Shown: piece by piece, positions 5,725 to 33,633 of the stretch
How the letters are laid out: each line of letters starts with the position of its first letter
Position numbering within the stretch: the stretch's first letter is position 1
Source: a virus
Lineage: Duplodnaviria; Heunggongvirae; Uroviricota; Caudoviricetes
DNA length: 40,315 nucleotides
Reading direction: 5' to 3' (one strand)
IMG/VR virus record: IMGVR_UViG_2541047797_000007
Program-made: the position numbers and the translations under genes
Notes under the pieces: model-generated
What the model saw: only the letters and a program-made list of their open reading frames with translations
Told to the model about the DNA's origin: nothing
Databases searched by the model: none

Positions 5725-5741
5725 ATTACCTTTCGGGTAAT
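5725..5741. promoter_or_regulatory. 17-bp operator-like palindrome ATTACCTTTCGGGTAAT
   Basis: Perfect TTACC-N5-GGTAA dyad, one of 15 copies in the prophage. Abuts a TTGCAA -35-like hexamer (5742-5747). Confidence 0.65.
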
Positions 5742-5779
5742 TTGCAAAACGTGCTGGATAGCAAACAAATTATTTGATA

Positions 5780-5795
5780 CTGTATAAATATACAG
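5780..5795. promoter_or_regulatory. LexA (SOS) box
   Basis: taCTGTATAAATATACAGtt is a perfect CTGT-N8-ACAG with an AT-rich centre. It lies 22 nt upstream of ATG 5818. Confidence 0.8.
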
Positions 5796-5817
5796 TTATT
5801 GCATGGAGAAGATTAAG

Positions 5818-6075
5818 ATGCAGCAGTATCACTATCCACTGGAAGAGGGATTTACCGAAAGGATTCACACGCCGGGAGGCGTCAGGTCACTGGTGGAGGG
5901 ATCGCACTTGATGAAATTACTCCGGGATCTCGATAAGGATGGATTTAATGTCGATGGCCCACTTGCCGAACTGACTGCACTGATTAACTACGTCACCAGC
6001 TCACAGATGTCTATGCAGGATCTGCAAACACATCTCGACTATTGTGCCGAACAATTACGAAAACAAACCAGATAA
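5818..6075 (+). CDS. Small SOS-controlled antirepressor candidate (paralog of the Ant C-terminal domain)
   Basis: 85 aa from the second ATG of ORF 5803..6075 (SD GGAG 5806-5809, 8-nt spacing). About 40% identical over about 77 aa to the C-terminus of the 218-aa antirepressor (shared PL..G...IH.P.GV..L.E.S.LM.LL..L..DG..V.G..AELT......Y........D.QTH..Y). A LexA box lies directly upstream. Confidence 0.7.
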   Translation: MQQYHYPLEEGFTERIHTPGGVRSLVEGSHLMKLLRDLDKDGFNVDGPLAELTALINYVTSSQMSMQDLQTHLDYCAEQLRKQTR

Positions 6076-6078
6076 GGT

Positions 6079-6107
6079 TTGCAATTACCAAATGGAGTGC
6101 TTATATT
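6079..6107 (+). promoter_or_regulatory. Sigma70-type promoter of the c4-like RNA/ant unit
   Basis: TTGCAA (6079-6084), 17-nt spacer, TATATT (6102-6107). The predicted +1 falls inside operator 6106-6122. Confidence 0.65.
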
Positions 6108-6122
6108 TACCTTTGCGGTAAA
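6106..6122. promoter_or_regulatory. 17-bp operator-like palindrome TTTACCTTTGCGGTAAA
   Basis: TTACC-N5-GGTAA dyad overlapping the -10/+1 of the promoter at 6079-6107. Confidence 0.65.
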
Positions 6123-6211
6123 TTTACATCGCACTCCTCTTGTGCCATAGTAATCGGGCACTGGCAAAATCCAGTGCCGGGATTGGTCTCCCGGATTACT
6201 AAGTGGCGCAT

Positions 6212-6234
6212 ACCACGCCAGACGTGGTTTTTTT
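6212..6234 (+). terminator. Intrinsic terminator/attenuator inside the ant leader
   Basis: Stem ACCACG (6212-6217) / CGTGGT (6223-6228) with loop CCAGA, followed by a run of 7 T (6228-6234). An alternative helix 6204-6208 : 6216-6220 competes with it. Confidence 0.6.
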
Positions 6235-6264
6235 ATGCGTATAGCACAGTCATGCCAGAATTAT

Positions 6265-6340
6265 GGTGGGCTGAATGGGGGTCCGAAAGGACGCCGGTAC
6301 CACTTAGGCCGGTAAGACCAACTCCGTTCAGTTCACCACC
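6265..6340 (+). ncRNA. c4-like antisense RNA (P1/P7 immI type) controlling the antirepressor gene
   Basis: 76-nt multi-helix element. Closing helices are 6265-6269:6336-6340 and 6271-6278:6324-6331. Inside are a GTCC-GAAA-GGAC hairpin (6281-6292) and a CCGG hairpin with an 11-nt loop (6294-6312). Loop CCACTTAG (6300-6307) and single-stranded AGACCAA (6315-6321) are complementary to CTAAGTGG/TTGGTCT boxes found both upstream (6199-6206 / 6183-6189) and downstream (6375-6382 / 6347-6353, overlapping the ant SD). No credible ORF. Confidence 0.65.
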
Positions 6341-6392
6341 ATCTGATTGGTCTCAGCGGTGGTGATGTAATTCGCTAAGTGGAGACGCCATC

Positions 6393-7049
6393 ATGAACGC
6401 TCAACTCATCCCCGTATTCAACGGCACTATATCTAACGAAACAGCCCTACTTTGTAATGCCCGCGATCTGCACGCTTTTTTAGGTGTTAAAAAGGTGTTT
6501 GCAGCATGGATTACAAATCGCATATCAGAATACGAATTCATTGAAAATCAAGACTATATTTTGCTTTCCAATTTGGGAAAGCAAACATCTGGTAGAGGCG
6601 GCCACAACCGCAAAGAGTACCACCTCACCCTTGATACAGCCAAAGAGCTGGCGATGGTCGAGCGTAACGAAAAAGGTCGTCAGGTACGACGCTACTTCAT
6701 TGAATGCGAGAAACGTTTAAGACAACAAGAAACAAAAGTGGAGAAGGTCTTGTCAGGCTTCATGCCCGCCATTATGGAGGCGATCAAGCTGGAAGACAAA
6801 AAAGAATACAGTGCCCCGCTGAAGCCCGGCTACCGCAGCCTGATTCATTCGCCGTCTGGTGTTCTCGGCCTGACGGAGAACTCACTGCTGATGAATCTGC
6901 TGAACCAGTTACAGGAAGACGGGCACGACGTATCGGGCGCGGCGGCGGAACTGACCACCATGTTCTGCTACATCGTCGGTGTGAGCAAATGCCTGCGTGA
7001 TATCCAGACCCACGCGGAGTACATCAACGACAAGGCAGGGTTCTTCTGA
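6393..7049 (+). CDS. ant: Antirepressor, AntA/AntB-type N-terminal domain plus C-terminal domain shared with the 85-aa protein
   Basis: 218 aa. The N-terminal 110 aa match the AntA/AntB pattern (ARDLH.FL.V...F..WI..RI..Y.F.E..DY........GG.....[12 protein letters not shown]....G...R.YFIE.E). SD GGAG 6381-6384. Terminator downstream. Confidence 0.8.
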
Positions 7050-7058
7050 CAGAACGGC

Positions 7059-7080
7059 GGCACAGGGATGTGCCTTTAAA
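7059..7080 (+). terminator. Intrinsic terminator after ant
   Basis: Stem GGCACA (7059-7064) / TGTGCC (7069-7074) with loop GGGA, followed by TTTAAATAATT. Confidence 0.6.
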
Positions 7081-7093
7081 TAATTCTGTACGA

Positions 7094-7239
7094 TTGCAGA
7101 CAGGGGGGTGAATAGAGTACTATTACCTTACGGGTGATCCATAGCGATTAGGCACCGATACAGGAGGAGCCCACATGAGAAAATTTGACGAGTACGAAGG
7201 CGTTTAACATTCGGATAGTTCATTTACCCTAATGGTAAA
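7094..7239 (+). promoter_or_regulatory. Promoter/operator region of the 211-aa orphan gene (two operator palindromes)
   Basis: TTGCAG (7094-7099), 18-nt spacer, TACTAT (7118-7123). Operator ATTACCTTACGGGTGAT (7122-7138) overlaps the -10/+1. A second operator TTTACCCTAATGGTAAA sits at 7223-7239. A 10-codon mini-ORF with a strong SD lies between them. Confidence 0.55.
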
Positions 7240-7278
7240 TCCCGCTTAAAGAAGCATCTATATATTATGAGGTGATGT

Positions 7279-7914
7279 ATGCCACAACAACTGCTGAATC
7301 CGGCAAAGGTAACTGAGGTTTTCGCTCATCTGAACGAAACTCCAGACAACCGCGCCCTGTATTCAGAGTTAGTGAACGGCAACGATGTCACATCTGATGT
7401 CAAAGGCGTTTCTCTGGCTCCTGGATACCGCGTTGTCCGTGTAGACGATCGTAAGAAAGGCGAGATTCCACAGGCGCACTTTGAACTGTCATTGATAAAT
7501 GACCTCACCGAAGAGGTAGTGTATTACAATCGTGTCATTATCCAGCCTGACAGCTATCTTAACTGCCGTCCTGTCACGCAGATATTGGTATGGAGAACCC
7601 AGAAGCCTAAGCATCGTGCTGTGCTTCATGATTTCGCCGGCATCATCTTCATGAACTACCTCTTGGAACGGTACGATATCATCGTGTCAGATCGCAACCA
7701 GACTCATGAAGGCATGTCGTTCTGGCAGGCTCGCATGTATGACGCACTGGAACTTGGCCTCCACCTCTATGGTTACGACATGATGACATGCGAGCTGATA
7801 GAGATGAATAACGAGGAAGAGCTTGAGAAAGGTGAAACCTGGTTGTGGGGTGATGCGGAAAACTTCCAAAACAGATTGGCCATAATTTCAAAGCATAAGC
7901 TGCCAATAAAATAG
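7279..7914 (+). CDS. Hypothetical protein, 211 aa, accessory (moron-like) cassette
   Basis: Clean ORF with SD GAGGTGA (7270-7276) upstream of ATG 7279, its own promoter/operators and its own terminator. I recognise no motif. Confidence 0.8.
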   Translation: MPQQLLNPAKVTEVFAHLNETPDNRALYSELVNGNDVTSDVKGVSLAPGYRVVRVDDRKKGEIPQAHFELSLINDLTEEVVYYNRVIIQPDSYLNCRPVTQILVWRTQKPKHRAVLHDFAGIIFMNYLLERYDIIVSDRNQTHEGMSFWQARMYDALELGLHLYGYDMMTCELIEMNNEEELEKGETWLWGDAENFQNRLAIISKHKLPIK

Positions 7915-7920
7915 TTCTTT

Positions 7921-7943
7921 AAGCCCGCGACGCGGGCTTTTTT
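7921..7943 (+). terminator. Intrinsic terminator of the 211-aa gene
   Basis: Stem GCCCG (7923-7927) / CGGGC (7933-7937), followed by TTTTTT (7938-7943). Confidence 0.8.
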
Positions 7944-7980
7944 GTGTCTGCGGATTCCCGCCCTGGCGGCGGTGGCATTC

Positions 7981-8020
7981 GTTAAAAACAAGGCCGCGAA
8001 AGCGGCCTGTGACATGTCAC
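7981..8020 (-). terminator. Terminator of the virion (late) operon preceded by palindrome GTGACATGTCAC
   Basis: The minus strand reads GTGACATGTCAC (8020-8009, containing the TGA stop of the 98-aa gene), then GGCCGC-tttc-GCGGCC (8007-7992), then TTGTTTTTAAC. Confidence 0.75.
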
Positions 8021-8313
8021 GCTCTTTTTCTGAATGATAGCCATTCGAAAAATGATGACATTCCACCGCAGACAATAGCAAAGATGATCCCACCAAAGAA
8101 GAGAAGGCCAGCCTGCCACCACTCCCACCGCCATACATCCACAGCGCCAACCATACCAACAATCGCTCCAACAAATGGAATATAGCTCACGATGAAAGCA
8201 ATGGGGGCTGCAATTATCCAGTGCAATCCCCACCATGATTCAAGCCCAGCCATAATTGCTGCCAACTGAAAAAGACCAACGACGATATAAACAATGAATC
8301 CTATAGCTTGCAT
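8017..8313 (-). CDS. Small integral membrane protein (3 TM), last gene of the virion operon
   Basis: 98 aa, very hydrophobic and Trp/Gly-rich. SD AGGTGA lies upstream of ATG 8313. Confidence 0.7.
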   Translation of the reverse strand: MQAIGFIVYIVVGLFQLAAIMAGLESWWGLHWIIAAPIAFIVSYIPFVGAIVGMVGAVDVWRWEWWQAGLLFFGGIIFAIVCGGMSSFFEWLSFRKRA

Positions 8314-8325
8314 GTAGTCACCTAT

Positions 8326-8499
8326 TTACCCAGTAAAAATCAGAGGCCTCCCCTCAATAAGGCTTGCAACAAGAACTATTCCCTGCACAACAAAGATGAA
8401 CCAGCAAATAGCTTGAGTCTGAGGGTTAAGAAAATATTTGTAGCGGTCAATAAATAACAACCCACCAAAAATTATCACACTCAAAATAATTAAAAACAC
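8326..8499 (-). CDS. Possible small membrane protein (57 aa, GTG start)
   Basis: Not in the supplied track because it is under 60 aa. GTG at 8499 is preceded by AAGGAAG. Translation (M)FLIILSVIIFGGLLFIDRYKYFLNPQTQAICWFIFVVQGIVLVASLIEGRPLIFTG gives two TM helices. It fills the 8314-8508 gap exactly. Confidence 0.35.
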   Translation of the reverse strand: MFLIILSVIIFGGLLFIDRYKYFLNPQTQAICWFIFVVQGIVLVASLIEGRPLIFTG

Positions 8500-8508
8500 A
8501 ACACTTCC

Positions 8509-10983
8509 TTATTGCGGAGTGACATCCTGAGGTCGCCACCAGTATGTCTGGTTAAACTCTTTCTTCGAACGTTGCTCCATTTTACGCAAATAGCCTGGTG
8601 AAAAATACTCCTGCATCTGGTTAAAAATCATGTGATCGAGAGCCGCCTTCAAGTACCAGAGATTCGCACCTGGCATCAAACCTTTCCCCAGCTTCACCAA
8701 ATCACCACCAGTCTGCTCACTCTTCCCTTCCACAGCATTTAACGGTATGCCCTGAGCAATCTTCACTACGTCATCAACCAGACCAGCTACCGGGCCAAGC
8801 ATCGACGCCAGCGCGCCGCTTCCGTACCTAGTGTGATCTGACAATAAAAAGTCACCGTAAAGGCCAAGACCACCACCTTTCAGTAGAGCACCAAGCCAAA
8901 ATTTAGCAGCATCTTCTCCTGTCATCTCGCGAGGATTACGACCAGACGCAAGGTCGTTAAGTTGCTGCGACAAAGCGCCAAGAATGGTCGTACTGGCAAT
9001 AAACGTCGCAATATATGCCGCACGCCCACCAGCAGACGGCATACCCATAGCGCGTGACCAGTGACGCATAACCACCGAGATAGGGAACGATTTAAACAGG
9101 AAAACACTTCTCGTTAATTCACCTTTCCATGTTCCACGCTGAATACCAGAACCGGTTATCAGTTGCTCACGTGCTCCCGGTGTAATAACAGCCATATCAA
9201 CTTCTTCAGTTACGGCACCGAGCAGTTTACGCATTGCCTCAAATTTCACGCGTTCAGGCTCACCAAGATGTTTAACTGCTGAATCAGGGATACGCATAAT
9301 GCTTTCCGGTGTCAGCATCGTATTATTGCCGTTCCCCCAGTCCTCCTGTTGCGCCAGCTTCCATACGCTCCAGTCTGTGTCAGTAATCCCTTTGCTTTTC
9401 AGGATACGAAAATCAGAATCATCGAGGCTACGAAGGTCTGGTGTCCGTGACACTACTTCTCCCAGGCTTCCCATCATGGTTACGCCATAGGCGCGCTTGT
9501 GCGCATCTGACCATGCTGTAAGCCCACTGGCACGCATTACCGCCGTTGCAGCCCAACGAGACACAGACGGCCCCATATTATCCATCGCCCAGCGGTTAAC
9601 GCTGCCAAGTAGAGATTCCATCGCCAGACCAGCGCGGCGCGCCCGCGCAAGTTCTGTACGGTTCGTTGGGTCCATAGCTTCAAGCTGGTTGCGGAATAAC
9701 TGGTTCATTGGAAGGTTGGTAACCTTCGCAGACAGATACATGGTTCCAAGATCAGAGAACGATGACAGCAACGCGGATCCGAGTCTGCTGGCAACCAGCC
9801 AGTTGCGGATATTGTCAGACCATCGCGCGATGTGCGGATTCGCTACAGGCTGTGTCTTTCCGGAAATAAAGTTGTACAGATTCTCTGTGTTGTTCGCCAG
9901 CCGCTCGACTTTACCGGTTTTACTCGGGTTAGCTGTTGCCGTTTCTGCCTTAACCTGATCAAGAAGGGAGCGGAAAACATGATCGGGGTTTGGACCATAT
10001 GTTTCCACCAGAGCAATATCTTTACTGATACCTTCCAGGTGACCGACCATGATTTCCCATAGAGAGCGATCGCCATAAAGTTGTTGATATTGGAGATAGG
10101 AATCAGCATCTTTGAAATGTATCTGTCGTGATGCATTACCACGGTTAGCACGTGCGCCGGAAATTCGCATTCCGGTATCAGTAAGCTTATTCAGCCCACC
10201 AGTAGCGATCGTGTTATAAGCCTCTCCAAGAAATGCAGACAACTCGGCATCGTTCATCAGTTGTCCATCGGCTCGGGTATAATATTTGCGATCCAGCTTA
10301 CCTATAACATCGTTAACCCACTTATCCTTTGATACCGCCCCAACCTTTTCCATAGAATGATGTTGAGGGATCCCCCAGTTTTCGAGATAGCCAATGTCCC
10401 CACCAGCATCATTAAACCGGCGGCGCAGCAGCTCTGTAACTTCTCTCCACGCCTTAGCACCTTTTCTTGCTTTAGCATTGCCAGTATTTTGCCCCCGCAT
10501 TTCATATACCAGGTCACGTACGCCCGCTTCATCTTCAAACAGACCAAAAAAGCGAGGATCAACTGCTTCGAATGCCTCCTGCAATTGACTCAATGCATAA
10601 TCACGGGTGGCTTTTGTTCTGGATTCAACAGAGAGGAAATTAGATTTACCGTCTGCATTAAAAGCTATAGTACGGTTAAGAGCGCCAAGTTTCCCATCAG
10701 CCCCTTGATAGCTATTGATAAATTTATCCAATCTCTGACGCGCGGCTATAGTGAGAGCCACACGACGTTTCTTTAATGCCGCTTCTCGCTGTAATTCTTC
10801 AGATGCCAATTGTGCTGCTCGATATAGCCGCTCTGATTCGGAAAGTTGTCGCCACGACATCGGGTCATCACGAGCAATGGAGCGCATATTTCGATAAATG
10901 CGGTCTTCAATGTTCTGTATTTCTCGCGCCGTTAACATGCGCTGCGCCGCCTGCTGAACCGCCTGTATACATTCCTGTCTCAT
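8509..10983 (-). CDS. Large internal virion / DNA-ejection protein
   Basis: 824 aa. Last of three consecutive very large genes after the tail-tube genes, as in T7-like and epsilon15-like podoviruses. Function assigned by position only. Confidence 0.6.
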   Translation of the reverse strand: MRQECIQAVQQAAQRMLTAREIQNIEDRIYRNMRSIARDDPMSWRQLSESERLYRAAQLASEELQREAALKKRRVALTIAARQRLDKFINSYQGADGKLGALNRTIAFNADGKSNFLSVESRTKATRDYALSQLQEAFEAVDPRFFGLFEDEAGVRDLVYEMRGQNTGNAKARKGAKAWREVTELLRRRFNDAGGDIGYLENWGIPQHHSMEKVGAVSKDKWVNDVIGKLDRKYYTRADGQLMNDAELSAFLGEAYNTIATGGLNKLTDTGMRISGARANRGNASRQIHFKDADSYLQYQQLYGDRSLWEIMVGHLEGISKDIALVETYGPNPDHVFRSLLDQVKAETATANPSKTGKVERLANNTENLYNFISGKTQPVANPHIARWSDNIRNWLVASRLGSALLSSFSDLGTMYLSAKVTNLPMNQLFRNQLEAMDPTNRTELARARRAGLAMESLLGSVNRWAMDNMGPSVSRWAATAVMRASGLTAWSDAHKRAYGVTMMGSLGEVVSRTPDLRSLDDSDFRILKSKGITDTDWSVWKLAQQEDWGNGNNTMLTPESIMRIPDSAVKHLGEPERVKFEAMRKLLGAVTEEVDMAVITPGAREQLITGSGIQRGTWKGELTRSVFLFKSFPISVVMRHWSRAMGMPSAGGRAAYIATFIASTTILGALSQQLNDLASGRNPREMTGEDAAKFWLGALLKGGGLGLYGDFLLSDHTRYGSGALASMLGPVAGLVDDVVKIAQGIPLNAVEGKSEQTGGDLVKLGKGLMPGANLWYLKAALDHMIFNQMQEYFSPGYLRKMEQRSKKEFNQTYWWRPQDVTPQ

Positions 10984-10988
10984 TTAAT

Positions 10989-12791
10989 TTAACCTCTCAA
11001 GAAACACGCCACAGCGACATCAAACAGGCTGGAATCCTGTATTGCCTGCTCACTTTCCCTGTTCGCTTCATCCAGTACTTCACGCGCACTGCGCGATTGT
11101 GGATTACCATCATCATCCAGCACGGTGATTATCATGTCAGGTGATTCAAGCAGCGAGTCTTCAGCTATACGCAGATCAATATCTCCTGCCGGATCTGCCA
11201 TCATTTTTTGTTCTGTCTGTTGCAATATCTTACCGGGCTCAAAAGGAGCTACTTCGTCTGGCGTCCTGACCTCTGCTGTTTTATAGAATGAAACAGCCTG
11301 AGCATTAAGTTCACTTTCTGCCTGCTGTCGTCGTGCCAGTTCTGCTCGAGCTTCAAAAAACTGACCGCCAGGCTCATGCGGTGCCAACGCGTTACGGGAA
11401 AATTCCAGGCGCTCTTGTGCCTGCCGGATTCGTTGGTCAATATCGCGAAGTCTGACCTGTTTATCTGATCGAGCACGAGACAAAGCTTTACCGCTACCGG
11501 TTGGCTCTTCTGCAAGAATTTGTGCGCGCTGTTCAGTGAGATTTTCAATAATTCGTTGGCTATTAGCGATTTCAGACTGGTAAACCTGTCTATCGCCACG
11601 CGGCAAAAGCTGCGCGGCCTGTTCTTCAAGCAACCGATTTTCTATAGCGCGCGCCGTTACTCCATCATCTACAGATGACAGAGCCTCATTAACTGCCTGA
11701 GACAACAGACTCTTGCGCCCAGGAATTTCACTGAAAGATGCAGACTCAACAATGCTGGCAACGTCTACAGGTCTCCCCTGGCTAACATCAGACATAGCTT
11801 TTCGCAGAGCCTGAATGTGAGAATTGCGCGAAAGCACGTTGATCGGCACGCCGGGCGCAATATCAATTTCAGCATGATGAGCGGCATTCGCCGCCAGTGC
11901 AGCATCAACATCAACTGGTGAAAAATTTGGTGCGCTTGTAGACTCGCCGCGAGAGTTCATAAATCTGCCGACACCACCAAACGCCACCCCAAGAACAGCA
12001 TCAATAGCAATTGCCTGTCGATCCAACACATCATACTGGTTAGCCATTTCGCTATAGCCACCATCACGAAGCGTTTTTGCAGTAAGCCCACGCTGTGCCA
12101 TACCGAACGCAATATTTGTACCTGCGGCATAGGCAATATCTGGCGTTGCACGTACTGCTGTTGCTGCGGCGCGTCGCACTGAACTTTCACCCGTCCGCGC
12201 AAGCTGGGCCGCCACACCTTCCGCCAGCGCACCACCAGCACGTAACCCGAGGCTCATAGGGATCAGTGTTCCGGCACCAGCAGTAATACCCTGCACTAAT
12301 CCCGCTTCCTGCGCCGTCCTGAAATCAACACCCTGTGCTGTCAGCCGTTCAAACTCAGAAAAACCCTGTAGAGAAGTTACCGCCGCAGCACCTCCGACCG
12401 GACCACCGAGCGTTGTACCGACAACAGCCTGCCCTCCCATATCGAACAACCCATAAAGGACCTGCCCGGCGGTTCCGGTTGTCGCGGCATCAGGCGTCAG
12501 CCGCTTAACCTGCTGCTCTGCTAGTTTTCTCTGCTCGGCAATGTATGAAACTGAAGTGTCATTGAGCGAGGTGTTTTCGTTAACAAACTGAGCAATCGGG
12601 GATACGATTTTATCCATCCCTGCCCATAGCAACTGATCTGGCTTTGCCACCAGCCCGGAGTACAAACCAGACAATGCCGCTCCTACAGCATTGTCGAAAA
12701 AACCAACATCGCTGTTAAAGCCAGCTGGATTTGATGCTGCTTCGTCAAGCTGCTGATTCTGGTTTACTGGATTAAGGCCAAAGTAACTCAT
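10989..12791 (-). CDS. Internal virion / ejection protein
   Basis: 600 aa, Gly/Ala-rich N-half and coiled-coil C-half. Overlaps the upstream gene by 4 nt. Function assigned by position only. Confidence 0.6.
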   Translation of the reverse strand: MSYFGLNPVNQNQQLDEAASNPAGFNSDVGFFDNAVGAALSGLYSGLVAKPDQLLWAGMDKIVSPIAQFVNENTSLNDTSVSYIAEQRKLAEQQVKRLTPDAATTGTAGQVLYGLFDMGGQAVVGTTLGGPVGGAAAVTSLQGFSEFERLTAQGVDFRTAQEAGLVQGITAGAGTLIPMSLGLRAGGALAEGVAAQLARTGESSVRRAAATAVRATPDIAYAAGTNIAFGMAQRGLTAKTLRDGGYSEMANQYDVLDRQAIAIDAVLGVAFGGVGRFMNSRGESTSAPNFSPVDVDAALAANAAHHAEIDIAPGVPINVLSRNSHIQALRKAMSDVSQGRPVDVASIVESASFSEIPGRKSLLSQAVNEALSSVDDGVTARAIENRLLEEQAAQLLPRGDRQVYQSEIANSQRIIENLTEQRAQILAEEPTGSGKALSRARSDKQVRLRDIDQRIRQAQERLEFSRNALAPHEPGGQFFEARAELARRQQAESELNAQAVSFYKTAEVRTPDEVAPFEPGKILQQTEQKMMADPAGDIDLRIAEDSLLESPDMIITVLDDDGNPQSRSAREVLDEANRESEQAIQDSSLFDVAVACFLRG

Positions 12792-27207: not shown

Positions 27208-27240
27208 AACCACCGTGGTAATAGTTACCGTTGTGGTAAT
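27206..27240. promoter_or_regulatory. Two adjacent operator palindromes at the 5' end of terS
   Basis: ATAACCACCGTGGTAAT (27206-27222) and GTTACCGTTGTGGTAAT (27224-27240). Confidence 0.55.
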
Positions 27241-27250
27241 AGTACCATGC

Positions 27251-27276: not shown

Positions 27277-27316
27277 AGTATCCAAAACCGTCAAATTCAT
27301 CATGCATAATCTACTC

Positions 27317-27328
27317 GTGACATGTCAC
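27317..27328. promoter_or_regulatory. Palindrome GTGACATGTCAC (third copy), containing the TGA stop of the 115-aa gene
   Basis: Exact 12-bp palindrome. The other copies are at 8009-8020 and 25053-25064. Confidence 0.5.
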
Positions 27329-27672
27329 ACTATTAATTTCGTTTCATGCCAGCCTTTAGTCACCCAGCATTGCGAGTCACCATTACACGGGCATGAATTA
27401 ACTGGAACTCTCTCGCCGCACTTACCGCAACGTTTTCTGCTGATCGATTTTATACGCCCGCGCACACGTGCATCATCCTGGCGGATCAGCAGCGCGATGT
27501 ACTCGGCCATTTCATAGGGATCGCGACCAGGGCGCCGGGCGGCGCAGTTCCGCGCCAGCATTTCCTGCTCCTGCTTATCCAGCACCAGTTCAATTTTGCG
27601 CTCACCGGCGGCGGACTGCCGAGCGCGCTGCGCGGCTTTGCGTTCTGCGGGGGATTTAGCCACGAATCGCAC
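27325..27672 (-). CDS. Basic protein with C-terminal Cys-rich zinc-ribbon; candidate late-gene regulator
   Basis: 115 aa. N-terminal basic helix region (AERKAAQRARQSAAGERK). C-terminus is CGKCGERVPVNSCPCNGDSQCW. Last gene before the terminator/terS. Function inferred from position only. Confidence 0.6.
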   Translation of the reverse strand: MRFVAKSPAERKAAQRARQSAAGERKIELVLDKQEQEMLARNCAARRPGRDPYEMAEYIALLIRQDDARVRGRIKSISRKRCGKCGERVPVNSCPCNGDSQCWVTKGWHETKLIV

Positions 27673-27778
27673 TCCACGCCAGATTGATTAATGACTCCCA
27701 GGTAATATAAACCCGGATACCAGCAGCCAGGCCGAAACCAATCACCATGGCATAAAGCAGAGCGTTGCACTTGTTCAT
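27656..27778 (-). CDS. Possible 40-aa membrane peptide
   Basis: MNKCNALLYAMVIGFGLAAGIRVYITWESLINLAWSAIRG. Its ATG shares a base with the upstream TGA (TGATG), and it overlaps the next gene by 17 nt. Not in the track because it is under 60 aa. Confidence 0.35.
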   Translation of the reverse strand: MNKCNALLYAMVIGFGLAAGIRVYITWESLINLAWSAIRG

Positions 27779-28320
27779 CACTTCACCTCCTGCTGCTGTG
27801 CTGCTGGCATTTCACGCCAGTGCGTAACTGAGTGCGGATCCGGATATTCGGTGCCATCATCCCAGCGATTGCCATTCCACATTGCAGACCACATCTCACC
27901 GTCTTCATACATGACCATTACCGGAATTAACTTATCCGGCATTCTCTCACTACAGCTTATCCAACCATCCGGAATTACCGGAGTTGGTCCATCGAATTCG
28001 GGCATGTCAGGACCTTTTCTGATAGCTTTAGCCAGCTCCAGCGGGTCATCGTAAAGCCAGTCGCCAGTTTGTGGGTGATTTGCTTCTGCAAGCTGCGCAG
28101 CCCATTCAAGACCATCTTTTTGACCTTGGAGATAATCAAGCGGCAACTCTTCATGATTACTTGCAGGTTCGGCACTATCAGCTTCGCGCCGCTTCTGTAG
28201 CTCTGCTGCCATTGCTCTCACGACTTCAACTGGTGCCCTTGCAGCAAACTCTATGTTGGTGATCAGCTCATTAAGATATTGCTCGCTGGGATACTGTTTC
28301 TTATTGGTAATAGTGGTCAT
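27778..28320 (-). CDS. DUF551-type phage protein
   Basis: 180 aa. The C-terminal W-rich module (GWISCSERMP...VMV..EDGEMWSAMWNGNRW......P..VTHW.EMP) is typical of DUF551. Confidence 0.65.
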   Translation of the reverse strand: MTTITNKKQYPSEQYLNELITNIEFAARAPVEVVRAMAAELQKRREADSAEPASNHEELPLDYLQGQKDGLEWAAQLAEANHPQTGDWLYDDPLELAKAIRKGPDMPEFDGPTPVIPDGWISCSERMPDKLIPVMVMYEDGEMWSAMWNGNRWDDGTEYPDPHSVTHWREMPAAQQQEVK

Positions 28321-28330
28321 GGGTTAGTCC

Positions 28331-29341
28331 TTATTCGCAAACGCCAGCATAAACGCTGCTGCAAACTGATTTGTCATTTGACTCTGCCAGCAGGTCAAAT
28401 TGAGCACCGCCTCTGGTGGTCATGGCCCAGTCACGGTAAGACTCAATACCGTATGCATCGACAGTAACGACGTCGATTCGTTTTTCTGCTCTGCGCGGGT
28501 CGTGCGTTGACGGAAAGAACGTTGAATTTCCACGGCGTGAGCAGGCAGCGACAAATCGCTCCCACTCTGCTACCCGTTTAATTTCTTCCGGCCAGCGAGT
28601 GAAAATTTCTGCCAGTTCTGATTTTCTGGCATGGATACATGGCATGCATCCAACCCGACTACAGCCCTGCTGGTAAAGTGGATTTGGCTTAATGCCATGG
28701 CGTTTGGCCAAGGAAAATACCTCTTCGTGCGTCCATTTCAATATTGGGCGGTACACATGCAGACCAGGGGTATTATCAGCATCTTCTTCCCACTCAGGCA
28801 GGCCAGCGCGGGCTGGGGATTCTTGGGCGCGAACTCCCTGCCAAAGAATAACTTCATCGTATTTTTCTAGCGCGGGGAGAACTATCTGATCGCGTACCGG
28901 ATCGTGCTTAAGTTCCAGAGAGCAGAAACGTGCTTTTGTACTCGGGAACCTGCCCTTCCACATGCACAAATCAAGGAATGGGTTTCCTGTTGGCTTGAGG
29001 ATATTCAGCGCCTGGGTGATACGTTCTGCGGCCTCCTCGTTAGACATGCCACATTCTTCAACCAGAGATATAGGCCATTTCTCAGCAATGAATTTCCGCT
29101 TACCTTCAATCTTTCGATTAAAATCAGCCTTCACTCGGGTTACCGGGCCGAGCAAAGATTCAAGATAGTCCAGGTATTCCATTGTCTGCGGGTGCTCATG
29201 TCCGGTATCCGCGAAAACAGTTATATGAGGGACACTGTTTTCAACGGCAAGGATCCATTGAGCAAGGCTGTCTTTCCCGCCAGATACGGAAATAACGTTG
29301 ATTGTGCTGGTTGCTTTGCAGCGTTTGTCGATGTTGCTCAC
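28331..29341 (-). CDS. PAPS-reductase-like PP-loop ATPase family protein
   Basis: 336 aa. PP-loop SVSGGKDS near the N-terminus and a Cys-rich C-terminal part (GCSRVGCMPC). Confidence 0.75.
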   Translation of the reverse strand: MSNIDKRCKATSTINVISVSGGKDSLAQWILAVENSVPHITVFADTGHEHPQTMEYLDYLESLLGPVTRVKADFNRKIEGKRKFIAEKWPISLVEECGMSNEEAAERITQALNILKPTGNPFLDLCMWKGRFPSTKARFCSLELKHDPVRDQIVLPALEKYDEVILWQGVRAQESPARAGLPEWEEDADNTPGLHVYRPILKWTHEEVFSLAKRHGIKPNPLYQQGCSRVGCMPCIHARKSELAEIFTRWPEEIKRVAEWERFVAACSRRGNSTFFPSTHDPRRAEKRIDVVTVDAYGIESYRDWAMTTRGGAQFDLLAESNDKSVCSSVYAGVCE

Positions 29342-29562
29342 TCTTCATCCTCCAAGTCGGCAACGGCGTCCATCACATCAGAACCGCGAATAACCTCAAA
29401 AGCACGGCAGGCCATTTGAAATACCAGTTGCTCTTGCGGATGCGGTGATTCCCAATATTTGAATCCAGGGCGATGCTCGTACCCCATCATTGAATAAAAA
29501 TCACCAGCAAGCTTAATCGCGGCATCGACAAGCTCTCTGTTAGTCATTCTTTTTCCGCTCAC
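29338..29562 (-). CDS. Hypothetical protein (74 aa)
   Basis: 4-nt overlaps with both neighbours. Confidence 0.6.
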   Translation of the reverse strand: MSGKRMTNRELVDAAIKLAGDFYSMMGYEHRPGFKYWESPHPQEQLVFQMACRAFEVIRGSDVMDAVADLEDEE

Positions 29563-30041
29563 TGGTTGCCTCCTTTGCGAAGCTGGTCGGCGAACAAACG
29601 TACACCAGACGCTTCACTGCGTAGAAACTTAACGGCATCATCAAAACCACCTCGTTCTGCGTCGTCTGCTCCGTTGTCGAGGTTATCTGCGTACATCTCT
29701 ACCCCCTGCGCCCGTACTTCAGCCAGGAAAGCATCGGTGGCTGGCATATTTCCTGTTGCCTTCATTGCCTCCAAAATAACCAGAACGCCATCTCGCCCAA
29801 TCTCCTCGCAGATAACCTCGGTGCTGTCGCCAACAACATCGCAAAATGCCTGAACTGCTTTACGAGCCAGCGCATTCTCCGCAGCCAGCGCATTAGCACG
29901 CACCAGTTGCACTTCCAGCTGCGTTGCCAAATCGCTGATCAGCTTTGCCACACTACGCATATCAACGGCACCACATTCTGCTTTCAGTTCCGAAGCCATC
30001 TCATGCCCGGCGGCAACTAACCCTTTGATATTACTTTCCAT
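29559..30041 (-). CDS. Ead/Ea22-like protein
   Basis: 160 aa. The C-terminal pattern ATDAFLAEVRAQGVE....D resembles the Ea22-like family of lambdoid prophages (from memory). Confidence 0.55.
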   Translation of the reverse strand: MESNIKGLVAAGHEMASELKAECGAVDMRSVAKLISDLATQLEVQLVRANALAAENALARKAVQAFCDVVGDSTEVICEEIGRDGVLVILEAMKATGNMPATDAFLAEVRAQGVEMYADNLDNGADDAERGGFDDAVKFLRSEASGVRLFADQLRKGGNQ

Positions 30042-30102
30042 CTTTACCCTCGCTTATCCACATAACTTATTGATTACATTGATAACTAAAAAGATCGTCG
30101 CT

Positions 30103-30447
30103 TCAGAACTCTTCGATGTTCCAGCCACCACCTGCTTTCTTTGGTTTAACCGTTACCCCGATGATTCGGAACGGATACTGATCTGCGGCGACTTTGGTTT
30201 TCACCCTGGCGTCGTCGGTCCAGAAACCTTTCACTTCGTGCAGTTCCATCTCGCCGGTGGCGAGCATCACAGCAAAATCGGGCGTATAGAACGTGTTGTC
30301 AGCTAACCGCAGCTTGATACCCTCAAATCGATACCAGACGATTTCTCCTGCACGTTTACGCAGCTCAAGGTGCTGGCAATACGCAGATTCTGTTTTGTTC
30401 ATTTGGCCTGTTTTGAGTCGACCAAGAGCCTGTATCTGTTTTCTCAT
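30103..30447 (-). CDS. DUF1064-type (PD-(D/E)XK-like) protein
   Basis: 114 aa. The pattern SK.E..Y...L..........Y......L......YTPDF...........E.KG is typical of DUF1064. Confidence 0.6.
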   Translation of the reverse strand: MRKQIQALGRLKTGQMNKTESAYCQHLELRKRAGEIVWYRFEGIKLRLADNTFYTPDFAVMLATGEMELHEVKGFWTDDARVKTKVAADQYPFRIIGVTVKPKKAGGGWNIEEF

Positions 30448-30449
30448 GA

Positions 30450-30528
30450 TTTACCCCTTAGGTAATTAAAAACCACATAAGACATGAAATCAATAGAGAT
30501 TAGAACATTTTGTTACCCAACAGGTAAT
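30450..30528. promoter_or_regulatory. Two operator palindromes plus an AAAAACCACATA box between the P-like and DUF1064 genes
   Basis: TTTACCCCTTAGGTAAT (30450-30466) abuts ATG 30447. GTTACCCAACAGGTAAT sits at 30512-30528. AAAAACCACATA (30468-30479) is identical to 5684-5695. Confidence 0.55.
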
Positions 30529-30564
30529 CATGTAGGCGTAAAAAAATGCGCTATCGCGCTGGTA

Positions 30565-31350
30565 TTACTTGATAAATCCTGCCGCCTTTCCCCGCCTGTA
30601 TTCCTCTATCAGCCACTGCGCCGGTGTTATTCCCCCCAGGGTGGCGGCGTTAGGCATGCACCCGAAACTTCGCCCTGGTGGATGGTAAACGTCTCTCCCA
30701 GTGTCAGGAGGCGTACTCATGGGTTCTGGCTTTGCCTGTATGCTGATCACCGGATCGGGTATCTGCTGTCCGGAAGCCACCTTTTTCGCCCAATCATCGA
30801 GCAGCCTGCGCGCGTGTTTCTCAACCTCAATCTCGCTAAGCTGGCGCTGATACATTGCACGGCGGGTATCACATACGACCCAGTACATAACCGGATGTCG
30901 CCACGGGAATCTTTCGGGACCACCAGGATATAAACTTTTTTCCTTGCTGTACCGGTGAAACTCCGCCATCACATCGTCAATGGTGACGCCAAGAACCATC
31001 TTGCTGTCTTTACACCACTTGATAAATTGCCCAGGCGACGGCCAGAACGGAGATTCACTGGCGCGGGCGTGGCGCATACCAGCAGAAACCTGTTCACGGG
31101 TTCTGATCCCCCCTTCGGCAAACGCAGCAATCCACTGCTGTTTTGCAGCAACTTCCTGCTCTGGCGTCTTCAGGTTGGTTACCACTGCCGCCGGAAACAG
31201 TTGTTTCAGCTGTTTGAAAAGGGCATCAACAAGCCTCTCTGCTGACATGTTCACCACGTTGTCATTGTTGGTGTACTGATGCTCATAACCTGACATGCGA
31301 GAAAGGGCTTCTCCGTCACGGTTTTGTATCGCGGTAAAAACGTTGTTCAC
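30565..31350 (-). CDS. Replication protein P-like (helicase loader)
   Basis: Similar to lambda P (LFPA......E....QW..AF.E.GI.T.EQV.AGMR.AR....PF.PSPGQF..WC). The preferred start is GTG 31350 (SD GGAGGA, GTGA overlap with the O-like stop). The track ATG at 31365 is the alternative. Confidence 0.75.
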   Translation of the reverse strand: MNNVFTAIQNRDGEALSRMSGYEHQYTNNDNVVNMSAERLVDALFKQLKQLFPAAVVTNLKTPEQEVAAKQQWIAAFAEGGIRTREQVSAGMRHARASESPFWPSPGQFIKWCKDSKMVLGVTIDDVMAEFHRYSKEKSLYPGGPERFPWRHPVMYWVVCDTRRAMYQRQLSEIEVEKHARRLLDDWAKKVASGQQIPDPVISIQAKPEPMSTPPDTGRDVYHPPGRSFGCMPNAATLGGITPAQWLIEEYRRGKAAGFIK

Positions 31351-32162
31351 AAGAAATCCTCCCATGCTTCAGGGCTGTTCCAGTGCGGAACGTTGTTATC
31401 AGGTAATGTTGATTGCTTCTGTCTGCTAATCTGCAGCCGCCTTGCCAGCTTCTGCTCCCACTGTGCCTGATGGTATGCCTTACCCTCAGCCATCCAGTAA
31501 ATTCTGAACTCTGCAAGTTCCTGTGCCGTTGGCAGACTGTCCAGGTAGATCCCCTGCAATGAGCTTTTCCGAAGAAAGTCATCTGATGGTTGCCATTGTT
31601 CATGCATGACAAATTTGCCTAATTGCCCTGGCCCACCAGGAGGAACAAAGTTATTCATCACGGCGTTGTTTGCGCCGGGGTCATGAGGCACAGAATCCCC
31701 GGTTTTTGTCCTGCTCTCCCTCTCTTGGTTAAATGACTGGTTATATGACTGGTTCTGGATCCCGTTTTTGGGATCATTCAACATCCCGTTTTTGGGATCA
31801 TTCAACATCCCGTTTTTGGGTATATTCCCGTTTTCGGGAACATTACCGTTTTCGGGTTCATTACAGCCTTCTAGGTTGCCTTTAATGTTCCCGTTTTTGG
31901 TTATATTAAGAGAGAAAACCCGCACTCTTTTTGTCGCTCCCTTTCTCTCTCCGGTATCTGAAATAAGCCCCATTTTCATGAGCGATATAAGTCCGGCCTG
32001 CACGGTTTTTTTATTCAGGCAAGTGTCTTTAACGAGGCGTTCTATGCTGGGGTAGCAGAGGTTATATTCATCGGCTCTGTCAGCCATCGAGAGCAGTATG
32101 AGCTTTAATGACGAGCTACCTGGATCTGTCTCCCAGGCCCAATCTGTTGCATGTCTGCTCAT
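31347..32162 (-). CDS. Replication initiator (O-like) with N-terminal winged-HTH and internal iteron-encoded repeats
   Basis: 271 aa. SD GGAG upstream. The N-terminus (LKLILLSMADRADEYNLCYPSIERLVKDT.LNKKTV...L..L...GLI) is HTH-like. Peptide repeats PENGN/PKNGMLND are encoded by the iterons. Confidence 0.75.
   Translation of the reverse strand: MSRHATDWAWETDPGSSSLKLILLSMADRADEYNLCYPSIERLVKDTCLNKKTVQAGLISLMKMGLISDTGERKGATKRVRVFSLNITKNGNIKGNLEGCNEPENGNVPENGNIPKNGMLNDPKNGMLNDPKNGIQNQSYNQSFNQERESRTKTGDSVPHDPGANNAVMNNFVPPGGPGQLGKFVMHEQWQPSDDFLRKSSLQGIYLDSLPTAQELAEFRIYWMAEGKAYHQAQWEQKLARRLQISRQKQSTLPDNNVPHWNSPEAWEDFL
31758..31902. repeat. Origin iterons (6 copies of TCCCGTTTTTGGGA-like dyad)
   Basis: Cores lie at 31760-31773, 31784-31797, 31808-31821, 31826-31839, 31844-31857 and 31889-31902. 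Spacings are 24, 24, 18, 18 and 45 bp. They lie inside the O-like gene, as in lambda ori. Confidence 0.75.
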
Positions 32163-32177
32163 GATTAATCTCCGCTA

Positions 32178-32378
32178 TCAGCTTGAATGTTGTGGGGAGG
32201 AATTAATCATGATCTGCTTAATCTCTGCCCTGATGCGACGGTTTGATTCCATGGTGCACTCAACACAGTGTCCGTTGTAAACCCAGCGTTCACTGTCATG
32301 TCCGTGCTTACATGGTTTTCCGGTGTAGTAGCGTTTAAGTCCGCGCTTTGCGGCATCAATACGTGTAATGATTTCCAT
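32178..32378 (-). CDS. Small zinc-ribbon protein (66 aa)
   Basis: Start taken at MEIITRIDAAK. The motif YTGKPCKHGH....R....G.CVEC recurs in small prophage proteins. The longer track ORF begins in an implausible hydrophobic leader. Confidence 0.55.
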   Translation of the reverse strand: MEIITRIDAAKRGLKRYYTGKPCKHGHDSERWVYNGHCVECTMESNRRIRAEIKQIMINSSPQHSS

Positions 32379-32457
32379 GGTAAGCCCTGTTATTAGTATT
32401 GGGATTACGGTTATTTTGTGCTGACACAAAAAAAAGATCAACCAGATTTGGTTTTTT

Positions 32458-32474
32458 ATTACCTTTGAGGTGCG
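32458..32474. promoter_or_regulatory. Operator-like site ATTACCTTTGAGGTGCG (degenerate right half)
   Basis: Left half is perfect; right half is GGTGC. Confidence 0.4.
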
Positions 32475-32528
32475 AATAGATATGAAAAGACCGCCGGATG
32501 GCGGTCTACAGAGGGTTGTGGCTGGATA

Positions 32529-32759
32529 TCATGAGTAGAAGAAGTATGCCAGTTCTGCTTTTGAGCGCAGCCATTGTCTTGTTTTACAGGCTTTAAAAAG
32601 CCCATTCATCAATACCTTACCTGGCATTTTGCGCTTACCTGTTAAGTGAGTCTGGATATAGTGACTCGTCGTTCCGGCTTCCTGTGCGAAGGCTTCACGC
32701 TCATCCGGAGTAAGTGCAAGCCAGTGCTTTTTGAAATCGAAATGTCCGTTATCGCTCAT
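32529..32759 (-). CDS. Cro-like HTH regulator, first gene of the early-right operon
   Basis: 76 aa. HTH-like EAFAQEAGTTSHYIQTHLTG. Divergent from the repressor gene across the tripartite operator. Confidence 0.65.
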   Translation of the reverse strand: MSDNGHFDFKKHWLALTPDEREAFAQEAGTTSHYIQTHLTGKRKMPGKVLMNGLFKACKTRQWLRSKAELAYFFYS

Positions 32760-32794
32760 AGCTATTGCCTGATATTTATTTCAGATAATAAATA

Positions 32795-32859
32795 TTCACC
32801 CATAAGGTAACAAAAATCAAGGATAGTTACCTATGGGGTGCATTTACCTATTGGGTAAT
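32795..32859. promoter_or_regulatory. Tripartite operator between the cro-like and repressor genes
   Basis: TTCACCCATAAGGTAAC (32795-32811), GTTACCTATGGGGTGCA (32826-32842) and TTTACCTATTGGGTAAT (32843-32859). A minus-strand promoter TTGATT-17-GAATAT brackets the first site. Confidence 0.7.
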
Positions 32860-32913
32860 ATTGCTTTAAATTGAATCATCTACTGATTCATATATGAGGC
32901 GATTTTCCAGAAA

Positions 32914-33498
32914 ATGAAAAGTATCCAGGACGTCCGCAGGCAAAATCTCAACGACTTGATCGACCGTGAATTCAATGGTGTTCAGACGCGGATGGCAGAA
33001 AAACTTGGAACTCAGGCAAATCTGGTAAACCGCTGGGCTCTTGGCAAGAAGGTTATCGGCGACCAGGTTGCGCGAAAAATTGAAGCTGCCGCCAATAAAC
33101 CCCGTAACTGGCTTGATATCGATCGCTCGCTTTCTCAGGAAGGTTTTCAGCCTGTCGGCCCAAGCGACATTGGTCAGCTGGCGGCTCACAACCTAGAACG
33201 CTGGATGAGCGAAAGCCGCGACCTTTCAACGCAGGGAAAACTTCACCGCGCATCCGGCGTCGCCCAGGTGACAATCAGCCGCCTGTTAAACAATGAGGTC
33301 AGTGTTTCCATTTCCACCCTGGAGAATGTTGCATCCGCATTCGGGCGTCACGGCTATGAATTACTGATTCACCCGCACGACCCTGCGACCATCAACTATG
33401 ACCGCTCGCGCTACGCATTGTTACCTGAAACAGAGAAGGCAAAGATCGAAAGTTACATTGAATTTGTCATCAGCCAGAACGAAAAAAACAAACAATAA
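32914..33498 (+). CDS. Prophage repressor with two tandem XRE/CI-type HTH domains and no S24 peptidase domain
   Basis: 194 aa. HTH 1 is QTRMAEKLGTQANLVNRWALGKK. HTH 2 is GKLHRASGVAQVTISRLLNNEVS. No Ala-Gly/Ser-Lys autocleavage module. Divergent from the cro-like gene. Terminator downstream. Confidence 0.75.
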   Translation: MKSIQDVRRQNLNDLIDREFNGVQTRMAEKLGTQANLVNRWALGKKVIGDQVARKIEAAANKPRNWLDIDRSLSQEGFQPVGPSDIGQLAAHNLERWMSESRDLSTQGKLHRASGVAQVTISRLLNNEVSVSISTLENVASAFGRHGYELLIHPHDPATINYDRSRYALLPETEKAKIESYIEFVISQNEKNKQ

Positions 33499-33518
33499 AA
33501 CCATATTTTTCAGTAAGT

Positions 33519-33543
33519 AAGCCGCCTCATGGCGGCTTTTTTA
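33519..33543 (+). terminator. Intrinsic terminator after the repressor gene
   Basis: GCCGCC (33521-33526) - tcat - GGCGGC (33531-33536), followed by TTTTTT. Confidence 0.8.
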
Positions 33544-33554
33544 TTGCCTGTGCG

Positions 33555-33633
33555 ATTACCTGATGGGTAATTTTTTTAACTCATATCTATTGACATCAAA
33601 CCAGATACGCATAATTATTACCTCAACGGTAAC
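33555..33633 (+). promoter_or_regulatory. Early-left promoter with two operators
   Basis: ATTACCTGATGGGTAAT (33555-33571). TTGACA (33590-33595), 16-17-nt spacer, TAATTA/AATTAT (33612-33618). ATTACCTCAACGGTAAC (33617-33633) overlaps the -10/+1. Confidence 0.65.

Follow-up and report, generated by a model that had tools for sequence, protein, structure and literature searches.

Does the immunity repressor of a temperate phage act only at the early promoters flanking its own gene, or does it silence transcription units throughout the genome? The question is raised by a viral sequence of 40,315 nucleotides (IMG/VR record IMGVR_UViG_2541047797_000007; the whole stretch is termed here the window), in which a 17-bp palindrome, ATTACC-N5-GGTAAT, recurs between positions 5725 and 33633. 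An earlier note, made from the sequence alone, had listed 15 copies and proposed that a single repressor holds them all, with operators at the immunity switch, the antirepressor island, the middle of the early-right operon, terS and the gap between terL and the portal gene. The window comes from a Uetakevirus, a temperate E. coli podovirus resembling epsilon15 and phiV10, and its 6-kb immunity region has 97.8% identity to phage phiv142-3 over 97% of that region. On the sequence evidence, one repressor acting at all of these places appears to be the best-supported explanation: the palindromes stand where operators classically lie, to either side of rep, the gene of the repressor, the layout recurs across the genus, and the RefSeq record of epsilon15 labels equivalent sites as repressor sites. 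We consider it quite probable that the palindromes are operators of Rep, a tetramer of the SPC32H/epsilon15 type that would not be cleaved on induction.

We scored the window with a symmetrised weight matrix built from 12 training sites, against a background of 500 Markov-2 simulations. The scores were bimodal: 13 sites reached at least 14 bits and all other positions stayed at or below 12 bits, compared with a mean of 0.23 sites (maximum 3) at this level in the simulations, confirming that the motif is real and exceeds expectation. When each was left out in turn, the training sites scored 17-22 bits, with the exception of 27206 (8.6 bits). Counted by mismatches over the whole window, ATTACC-N5-GGTAAT occurs twice exactly (0.01 expected) and 15 times with up to two mismatches (0.87 expected; maximum of 4 in 100 shuffles), and its 15-nt core, TTACC-N5-GGTAA, 14 times with up to one mismatch (0.62 expected). 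Thirteen of these core matches are sites that had been listed before; the remaining one, at 5494 in the tail-fibre coding sequence, has no counterpart listed in the phiv142-3 or epsilon15 scans. Low-mismatch matches at 2727, 4836, 5493 and 15303 were set aside as chance (coding, at most 12 bits, and with no counterpart of 12 bits or more in phiv142-3 or phiV10). The original count of 15 holds in part: 13 sites are strong, and the other two, 32458 (11.2 bits, three mismatches) and 32826 (10.2 bits, more than three mismatches), are degenerate and score in the background range, though they stand at conserved positions, both syntenic with better sites in relatives.

On a coding map drawn from the list of open reading frames (ORFs) and from the way close relatives are annotated, non-coding DNA amounts to 7.3% of the window, and all 15 sites, as had been claimed, have no base inside a mapped coding sequence. 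Because non-coding DNA makes up so little of the window, the probability that 13 of 13 strong sites would be non-coding by chance is about 1.6e-15. Nine of the 13 lie outside the region flanking rep. The gene order against which the sites are placed is:

1289-5621, minus strand: lysis genes and tail fibre
5818-7914, plus strand: antirepressor island
8017-24478, minus strand: structural operon
25139-27204, minus strand: terL and terS
27325-32759, minus strand: early-right genes
32914-33498, plus strand: rep
from 33653, plus strand: early-left genes
window end, minus strand: int

Around rep, the motif takes up the classical OR and OL positions on either side of the gene and overlaps both PR, the promoter of a cro-like gene, and PL (operators are listed without a strand):

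32458-32474: weak operator after the terminator of the cro-like gene (32507-32488), upstream of a putative promoter of the replication genes, TTGATC-17-CAAAAT (minus strand)
32529-32759, minus strand: cro-like gene, 76 amino acids (aa), divergent from rep; phrog_35, "transcriptional repressor", E=6e-13
32795-32811: OR1-like operator, TTCACC...GGTAAC, in the spacer and -35 of PR
32826-32842: OR2-like degenerate site, GTTACC...GGTGCA
32843-32859: OR3-like strong operator adjoining rep, 21.3 bits, with a conserved TTAAAT downstream
32914-33498, plus strand: Rep, the 194-aa immunity repressor, with an N-terminal helix-turn-helix (HTH), a middle HTH-like dimerisation domain and a C-terminal tetramerisation segment
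33555-33571: upstream PL operator, an exact palindrome with 18 bp between it and the -35
33590-33618, plus strand: PL, TTGACA-17-AATTAT
33617-33633: PL operator over -10 and +1, its bases 1-2 being the last two of the -10 hexamer AATTAT (33613-33618)

PR is read on the minus strand, with its -35 at 32813-32808 and its -10 at 32790-32785, and the asymmetric TCACC half-site of the OR1-like operator is kept in seven of seven genomes. The counterpart of 32826 is a perfect middle operator in epsilon15, SPC32H and BUCT711, 17 bp from the third, and is degenerate in the phiV10 lineage. The left half of the OR3-like operator would overlap a putative -35 of the rep promoter. Spacings within the OR triple are 31 and 17 bp, and the centres of the PL pair lie 62 bp apart in seven of eight complete genomes (63 bp in BUCT711). 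PL and Pmid, the promoter in the middle of the early-right operon, are collinear, gap-free paralogous cassettes made up of an operator, 18 nt, a -35, 17 nt and a -10 overlapping a second operator. The stretch behind the cro terminator is a third cassette with the same order of elements, in which the operators, 32458 included, have decayed; in phiv142-3 the counterpart of 32458 scores 15 bits.

Beyond the switch, sites of the same kind stand at the mid early-right, packaging, head and tail units:

5675-5690, minus strand: tail-fibre hybrid half-operator TGGTTTTTCAGGTAAT, 50 bp from 5725 and within the promoter region of the tail-fibre gene
5725-5741: operator in the gap between tail fibre and ant, an exact palindrome
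24506-24521, minus strand: gp3 hybrid half-operator TGGTTAAATTGGTAAT, 62 bp from 24568 and within the gp3 core promoter and invariant leader
24568-24584: gp3/portal operator, at the head of a conserved leader
27206-27222: second terS operator, abutting the first at 18-bp spacing and covering the GGTGG Shine-Dalgarno sequence before the ATG at 27204
27224-27240: first terS operator, overlapping a conserved extended -10, TGGTACTAT (27247-27239, minus strand), and starting at 27240
30450-30466: Pmid operator over -10 and +1, its right half carrying the Shine-Dalgarno sequence of the DUF1064 gene (ATG at 30447)
30465-30493, minus strand: Pmid, TTGATT-17-TTTAAT, read from the sequence, with its elements kept in seven genomes
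30512-30528: upstream Pmid operator, directly after a terminator

At five promoters (PL, PantA of the second antirepressor unit, P211 of a 211-aa cassette, Pmid and PterS), the operator keeps one and the same register, beginning on the last two bases of the -10; because of this register, bound Rep would cover the -10 and +1 at all five. At Pmid, for example, the -10 TTTAAT occupies 30470-30465 on the minus strand and the operator starts at 30466. The Pmid pair is 62 bp apart in eight of eight complete genomes, and a metagenome prophage has an 18-bp pair instead. The terS sites had been placed directly on the start of the gene; both are there, immediately upstream of the conserved ATG rather than on it, with a terminator (27276-27259) just upstream of them. 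Read as RNA (27204-27242, minus strand), the two terS operators could pair with each other (-11.3 kcal/mol, z=-2.3) and so hide the terS ribosome-binding site, though the evidence for this is marginal.

At each of the late promoters, gp3/portal and tail fibre, a full operator stands together with a conserved hybrid, TGGTT-N5-GGTAAT, which lies within a strongly conserved leader; the window, epsilon15 and BUCT711 have this hybrid at these two promoters and nowhere else. Within the gp3 leader (24498-24527, minus strand), about 27 bp, TAT.TGGTTAAATTGGTAATAATTTAA, are invariant but for one position in seven of seven genomes, next to a highly variable island, and contain an inverted repeat, TTAAAT...ATTTAA, around the Rep half-site. 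The 9-mer TATGTGGTT has three exact copies on the minus strand (5686-5694, 24517-24525 and 30471-30479; about 0.3 expected by estimate), which lie just upstream of or inside the -10 region of the operator-adjoining promoters of tail fibre, gp3/portal and Pmid and are kept in relatives. The 9-mer may serve these promoters as a common element or be the site of a second factor.

Among the promoters that had been said to overlap or adjoin operators, those at 33590-33618 (10 of 12 consensus positions) and 6079-6107 (9 of 12) were found by a promoter scanner as well. The one at 7094-7123 is weakly supported, with TTGCAG (3 of 6 positions) as its -35 and no promoter reported by the scanner, and the one placed at 24547 on the plus strand was rejected: TTGACA-N11-AATTAT has the wrong spacing, and the scanner again reports none. 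The claim that the palindrome covers every transcription unit needs a caveat: a moron pair at 1-1071 has no site.

The antirepressor island, which includes the 211-aa cassette, holds the following features:

5778-5796, plus strand: perfect LexA (SOS) box, TACTGTATAAATATACAGT, 21 bp before the start of small ant
5818-6075, plus strand: small antirepressor Ant, 85 aa; phrog_450, E=1e-47
6079-6107, plus strand: PantA, TTGCAA-17-TATATT, promoter of the isrK-C4-antA unit
6106-6122: PantA operator over -10 and +1 (-10 TATATT, 6102-6107)
6158-6234, plus strand: isrK-like Hfq-binding small RNA in the antA leader; Rfam 67.7 bits, above the gathering score
6259-6343, plus strand: C4 antisense RNA in the antA leader; Rfam 61.2 bits, above the gathering score
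6393-7049, plus strand: second antirepressor, 218 aa; AntA N-terminal domain PF08346, E=4e-26
7122-7138: P211 operator over the -10 TACTAT (7118-7123) of the weak promoter of the 211-aa cassette
7223-7239: second operator of the cassette, 101 bp downstream of 7122 and 40 bp before the ORF
7279-7914, plus strand: 211-aa ORF, phrog_1349, followed by a strong terminator (7921-7939)

Repressor control of this island is supported for one of its two antirepressor genes: the promoter of the antA unit carries an operator, and small ant stands under the LexA box. The site at 5725 is centred about 57 bp upstream of the predicted ant start and better fits the divergent tail-fibre promoter. The SOS-core bases that were checked in the LexA box are invariant in seven Uetakeviruses from four host genera. 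Small Ant has the same position as SPC32H ant and epsilon15 gp19, and is taken as the SPC32H Ant orthologue, its likeness to the Ant chain 5d50_E having been judged by eye on an unscored alignment. Residues 137-213 of the 218-aa antirepressor match the same chain (E=5e-14). The isrK/C4/antA unit looks like a P1/P7 immI-type or Gifsy isrK-type module grafted onto a Uetakevirus; a terminator-like hairpin (6212-6228) lies inside the isrK match. The 211-aa ORF, which has no Pfam, NCBIfam or PADLOC match, belongs to a cassette that on its operators is apparently repressed in the lysogen, unusual for a moron. Between operators 7122 and 7223 lies a 10-codon ORF, MRKFDEYEGV (7176-7208, plus strand), with a strong Shine-Dalgarno sequence, which may be a leader peptide of the 211-aa gene.

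The protein assigned to these sites matches the crystallised Rep (5d50_A) of SPC32H, a Salmonella phage and likewise a Uetakevirus, over its full length (E=4e-42). It carries HTH_3 (residues 106-147) and shares 99.5% identity with the repressors of phiV10 and ZX5. Pfam gives only HTH-type domains for Rep, and an S24 (LexA-like) autocleavage domain was not found in it. Orthologues from epsilon15, SPC32H, Tyrion, BUCT554 and BUCT711 were aligned, with identity down to 42%; an NLVNRW stretch, invariant in the six aligned phage Reps, is taken as the putative recognition helix. By every testable feature the window is a member of the epsilon15/SPC32H Rep-Ant system, with an orthologous Rep, palindromes at PR and PL, copies at the "repressor" positions of epsilon15 and a small ant predicted to be under LexA control. 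With SPC32H in particular it shares the full-length Rep match, the Ant domain, the LexA box before small ant and the dispersed motif (18 matches in SPC32H versus 0.48 expected); it differs in that its Rep is only 42% identical and in having a larger second antirepressor behind isrK and C4 RNAs. The SPC32H antirepression system (PDB 5D50, 5D4Z) was reportedly described in Kim and Ryu 2013 and Kim et al. 2016.

Secondary literature describes SPC32H Rep as switching between dimer and tetramer and binding palindromic DNA as the tetramer, each DNA-binding pair being formed by domains of different dimers, and as being inactivated when tetrameric Ant binds two Rep dimers and the tetramer is broken (PMC9638917). 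A further paper assigns its C-terminal domain to a tetramerisation fold associated with DNA looping and speaks of repression as a process whose structural mechanism "has not been extensively characterized" (PMC9986798). The induction route from LexA through Ant to the repressor is outlined in a review (PMC7380047). Combining these accounts with the site layout, we infer that Rep binds at all sites, that it bridges paired sites and that the late promoters are sigma-70 promoters under its direct silencing. In the lysogen, Rep would occupy the core promoters of almost all lytic transcription units: at PR its operator would be placed in the spacer between -35 and -10, and at the gp3/portal and tail-fibre promoters an upstream full operator would be paired with the half-operator inside the promoter. 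With second sites at 17-18, about 31, 50 and 62 bp, one tetramer, having two DNA-binding units, could hold two sites, either adjacent or across a short loop. On induction, DNA damage would remove LexA from the SOS box of small ant; Ant would then dismantle the Rep tetramers, freeing all operators together, and release of the Rep-controlled second antirepressor unit (isrK-C4-antA) would provide positive feedback.

A more specific proposal is that the operator grammar (i.e., the register, the 62-bp and 17-18-bp pairs and the late hybrids) reflects obligate two-site binding by Rep tetramers, with every lytic promoter bridged or looped and Ant releasing all of them; this we put forward tentatively, as a somewhat doubtful extension. 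When Rep was overexpressed in ZX5, the phage with the 99.5% identical repressor, mRNA levels of holin and endolysin dropped by 99.97-99.99% (PMC9782041), which is consistent with direct control of late units and is no proof of it. Several points weigh against the proposed silencing. The effect on the ZX5 lysis transcripts may be indirect, and looping over 62 bp is tight, perhaps requiring a protein that bends the DNA. The promoters of terS, gp3 and tail fibre have no recognisable -35 and might need an activator using the same DNA, and the best-matching OR site lies on the rep side rather than the cro side, the reverse of lambda. Finally, a search aimed at Rep variants changed in helix 36-41, the putative recognition helix, found no lineage with an altered motif among the variants examined, and hence no co-variation of repressor and operator. 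That search returned two protein variants, one with NLVSRW and one with NLISRW plus a five-residue insertion, and their contigs keep TTACC-N5-GGTAA at OR, PL, Pmid and terS (the Serratia contig also before gp3); matches in IMG/VR held only Reps that are 99-100% identical, on at least 80 contigs.

The layout recurs in epsilon15, SPC32H, phiV10, Tyrion, BUCT554, BUCT711 and two prophages, with a terS pair, one gp3/portal site, one site in the gap between tail fibre and ant, a Pmid pair, a PL pair and an OR triple. Counting phages and prophages together, nine sequences besides the window keep the syntenic layout and its spacings; they come from E. coli, Salmonella, Enterobacter, Klebsiella and Serratia. 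Core matches in relatives, counted by a mismatch pattern scan rather than the weight matrix, were:

epsilon15: 15, versus 0.50 expected
SPC32H: 18, versus 0.48 expected
Tyrion: 15, versus 0.75 expected
BUCT554: 14, versus 0.50 expected
BUCT711: 13, versus 0.36 expected
Serratia prophage (20.6 kb): 10, versus 0.24 expected
E. coli-type metagenome prophage (20.6 kb): 11, versus 0.26 expected

Over seven genomes, 91% of half-site columns are invariant, compared with 14% in the N5 spacer and 40% in the flanks; fixed half-sites around a freely changing spacer are the mark of a surface contacted by protein rather than of base pairing. Judging from these alignments, TTACC/GGTAA specificity appears frozen across at least five host genera, over which Rep identity fell to 42%. 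If this is true, these phages should show broad cross-immunity, or Ant should induce across them, and it is reasonable to expect that immunity could not be swapped as a module, because a dozen operators are dispersed. Two sites of the relatives are missing from the window. The lysis-cassette site has no counterpart in it, the tail-fibre gene abutting the lysis genes there. A one-mismatch operator, TTACC-N5-GGTAT, lies in all relatives shortly upstream of int, within the attP region (about 40-60 bp upstream where measured, in phiv142-3, epsilon15 and phiV10); since the window ends at the start of int, this site would lie just beyond base 40315. It is found at 39128 in locus L001, 26869 in L002, 26882 in L003, 26960 in L004, 28568 in L005, 19769 in L006 and 12620 in L007, and in epsilon15 it adjoins an annotated integrase-binding site (26873-26882) inside a predicted RNase III feature (26874-26912).

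The earlier note's mention of such an operator-like repeat in epsilon15 proved right. The RefSeq record NC_004775.2 marks seven equivalent sites as "protein_bind: repressor", with the label "lysogeny", at coordinates that coincide with TTACC-N5-GGTAA matches:

12-27: just before terS
2931-2947: gap between terL and the portal gene, equivalent to 24568 in the window
19895-19911: gap between gp19 and tail fibre, equivalent to 5725 in the window
32479-32494, 32554-32570 and 32616-32632: PL side of the repressor gene
35906-35922: mid early-right

Epsilon15, a Salmonella phage, is the type phage of the same genus and has an orthologous repressor (42% identity), with the 17-bp palindrome at terS, gp3/portal, the gap between tail fibre and gp19, the PL side and mid early-right. 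Its record leaves out the OR triple, the second terS and Pmid sites and the lysis-cassette and int-proximal sites; relative to epsilon15, the window lacks the lysis-cassette site and has extra sites at the second antirepressor unit and the 211-aa cassette. A genome-wide layout of repressor sites is thus already annotated for epsilon15 and is a known design. Kropinski et al. 2007 (Virology 369:234) is said to be associated with predicted repressor-binding sites in epsilon15. What is added here is modest and may or may not be published: the register rule, the 62-bp cassettes, the late hybrids and a half-site that stays invariant throughout the genus. The first three, like the abutting pairs 17-18 bp apart, are unmarked in the epsilon15 record, and a full-text literature search with the motif plus phage names gave no match.

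Other explanations of the palindrome have to be set against Rep. That it is a chance or compositional artefact would find some footing only at three mismatches, a level at which the window has 40 matches versus 11.9 expected, many of them background; the 17- to 36-fold excess at stringent thresholds in every genome tested, the non-coding position of all strong sites and their synteny across the compared genomes have already refuted this reading statistically, and we give it virtually no weight. Hairpins in RNA or DNA (e.g., terminators, RNase III sites or packaging signals) might be suspected, since perfect copies can fold 7-8 bp hairpins of -5 to -6.4 kcal/mol and some of the gaps concerned have predicted RNase III sites in the epsilon15 record. 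The copies have no T-run, however, and those at 33555 and 30512 lie upstream of a -35 and so are not transcribed from that promoter; mismatches are uncompensated and their asymmetry is conserved (TCACC...GGTAA folds at only -1.1 kcal/mol), and the stems never co-vary though the spacer varies freely. The hairpin or terminator reading was dropped for its weak folding and uncompensated, conserved asymmetry, and strikes us as very improbable.

Proteins other than Rep could also use the motif. The 76-aa cro-like protein might share the sites, or be their main user, binding the repressor's operators as Cro does in lambdoid phages, and damp the transcription units in lytic growth: rep and the cro-like gene are divergent around a tripartite operator region, as at lambda OR, and the protein falls in a PHROG of transcriptional repressors. 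It has no match to an HTH family at Pfam thresholds and no link to the dispersed sites, however, and a Cro that bound tightly to the promoters of terS, gp3 and tail fibre would switch off late genes in lytic growth. Such sharing is not exclusive of control by Rep, and we regard it as unlikely, if still worth serious thought. At the late units the motif could instead be a switch-on element recognised by an activator that the phage encodes, for instance the phrog_536 regulator (27325-27672) or a PerC-like protein, an idea drawn from the late promoters' lack of a -35 and their conserved extra elements, TATGTGGTT and the TGGTT-N5-GGTAAT hybrid. Against it, the late full sites are indistinguishable in sequence from the OR, OL and Pmid operators, terS keeps the same register of -10 and operator and has an extended -10 TGn motif that could explain its independence of a -35, and the annotators of epsilon15 gave these sites to the repressor; we hold an activator to be improbable, distinctly more so than a role for the cro-like protein.

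The dispersed operators of Rep also invite comparison with better-known repressors. C1 of P1 and P7 has operators dispersed genome-wide, one of them controlling the immI c4-icd-ant operon, and P1 C1 binds asymmetric 17-bp sites as a monomer. The window shares with these phages a single repressor with many scattered operators, including one on a C4-containing antirepressor operon, but its sites are palindromic and its protein is an HTH_3/XRE-type tetramer homologous to SPC32H Rep (no search was aimed at C1 homology); because its sites are palindromic and its protein unrelated, it does not belong to the P1 C1 family. Mycobacteriophage L5 gp71 acts at about 30 stoperators, asymmetric 13-bp sites in one orientation inside transcribed regions, where it blocks elongation. 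Silencing in L5 is likewise genome-wide rather than confined to two early promoters, but the window is not of the L5 type, since its sites are symmetric, promoter-proximal and non-coding. Like lambda, the window has three operators between a repressor gene and a cro-like gene that point away from each other, and operators overlapping PR and PL; unlike lambda, its Rep has no S24 domain, its induction would run through an antirepressor, its operators extend beyond OR and OL, and the order of OR site quality is reversed. The silencing proposed for this family, by one antirepressor-sensitive tetrameric repressor at nearly every promoter, including those of the packaging, head, tail and second-antirepressor units, would contrast with lambda, where two early promoters gate the cascade. 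The family is common as prophages in E. coli, Salmonella, Klebsiella and Enterobacter and carries serotype-conversion genes. The practical value of these results is limited, because the epsilon15 layout is annotated and the SPC32H repressor/antirepressor pair has been structurally characterised.

Between the int/attP end and the lysis genes lie the two plus-strand genes of the moron pair (1-516 and 532-1071), one for a putative glycine-zipper/TraT-like lipoprotein and one for a DUF5384 protein; because no Rep operator is nearby, the pair is moron-like and possibly expressed in the lysogen. The island between terL and the portal gene (24479-25138) is shorter than in relatives and without a tRNA, where phiv142-3 and SPC32H have a tRNA-Arg, and within it a promoter-like sequence, TGGACA-17-TACAAT (24922-24950, plus strand), precedes a 61-aa ORF.

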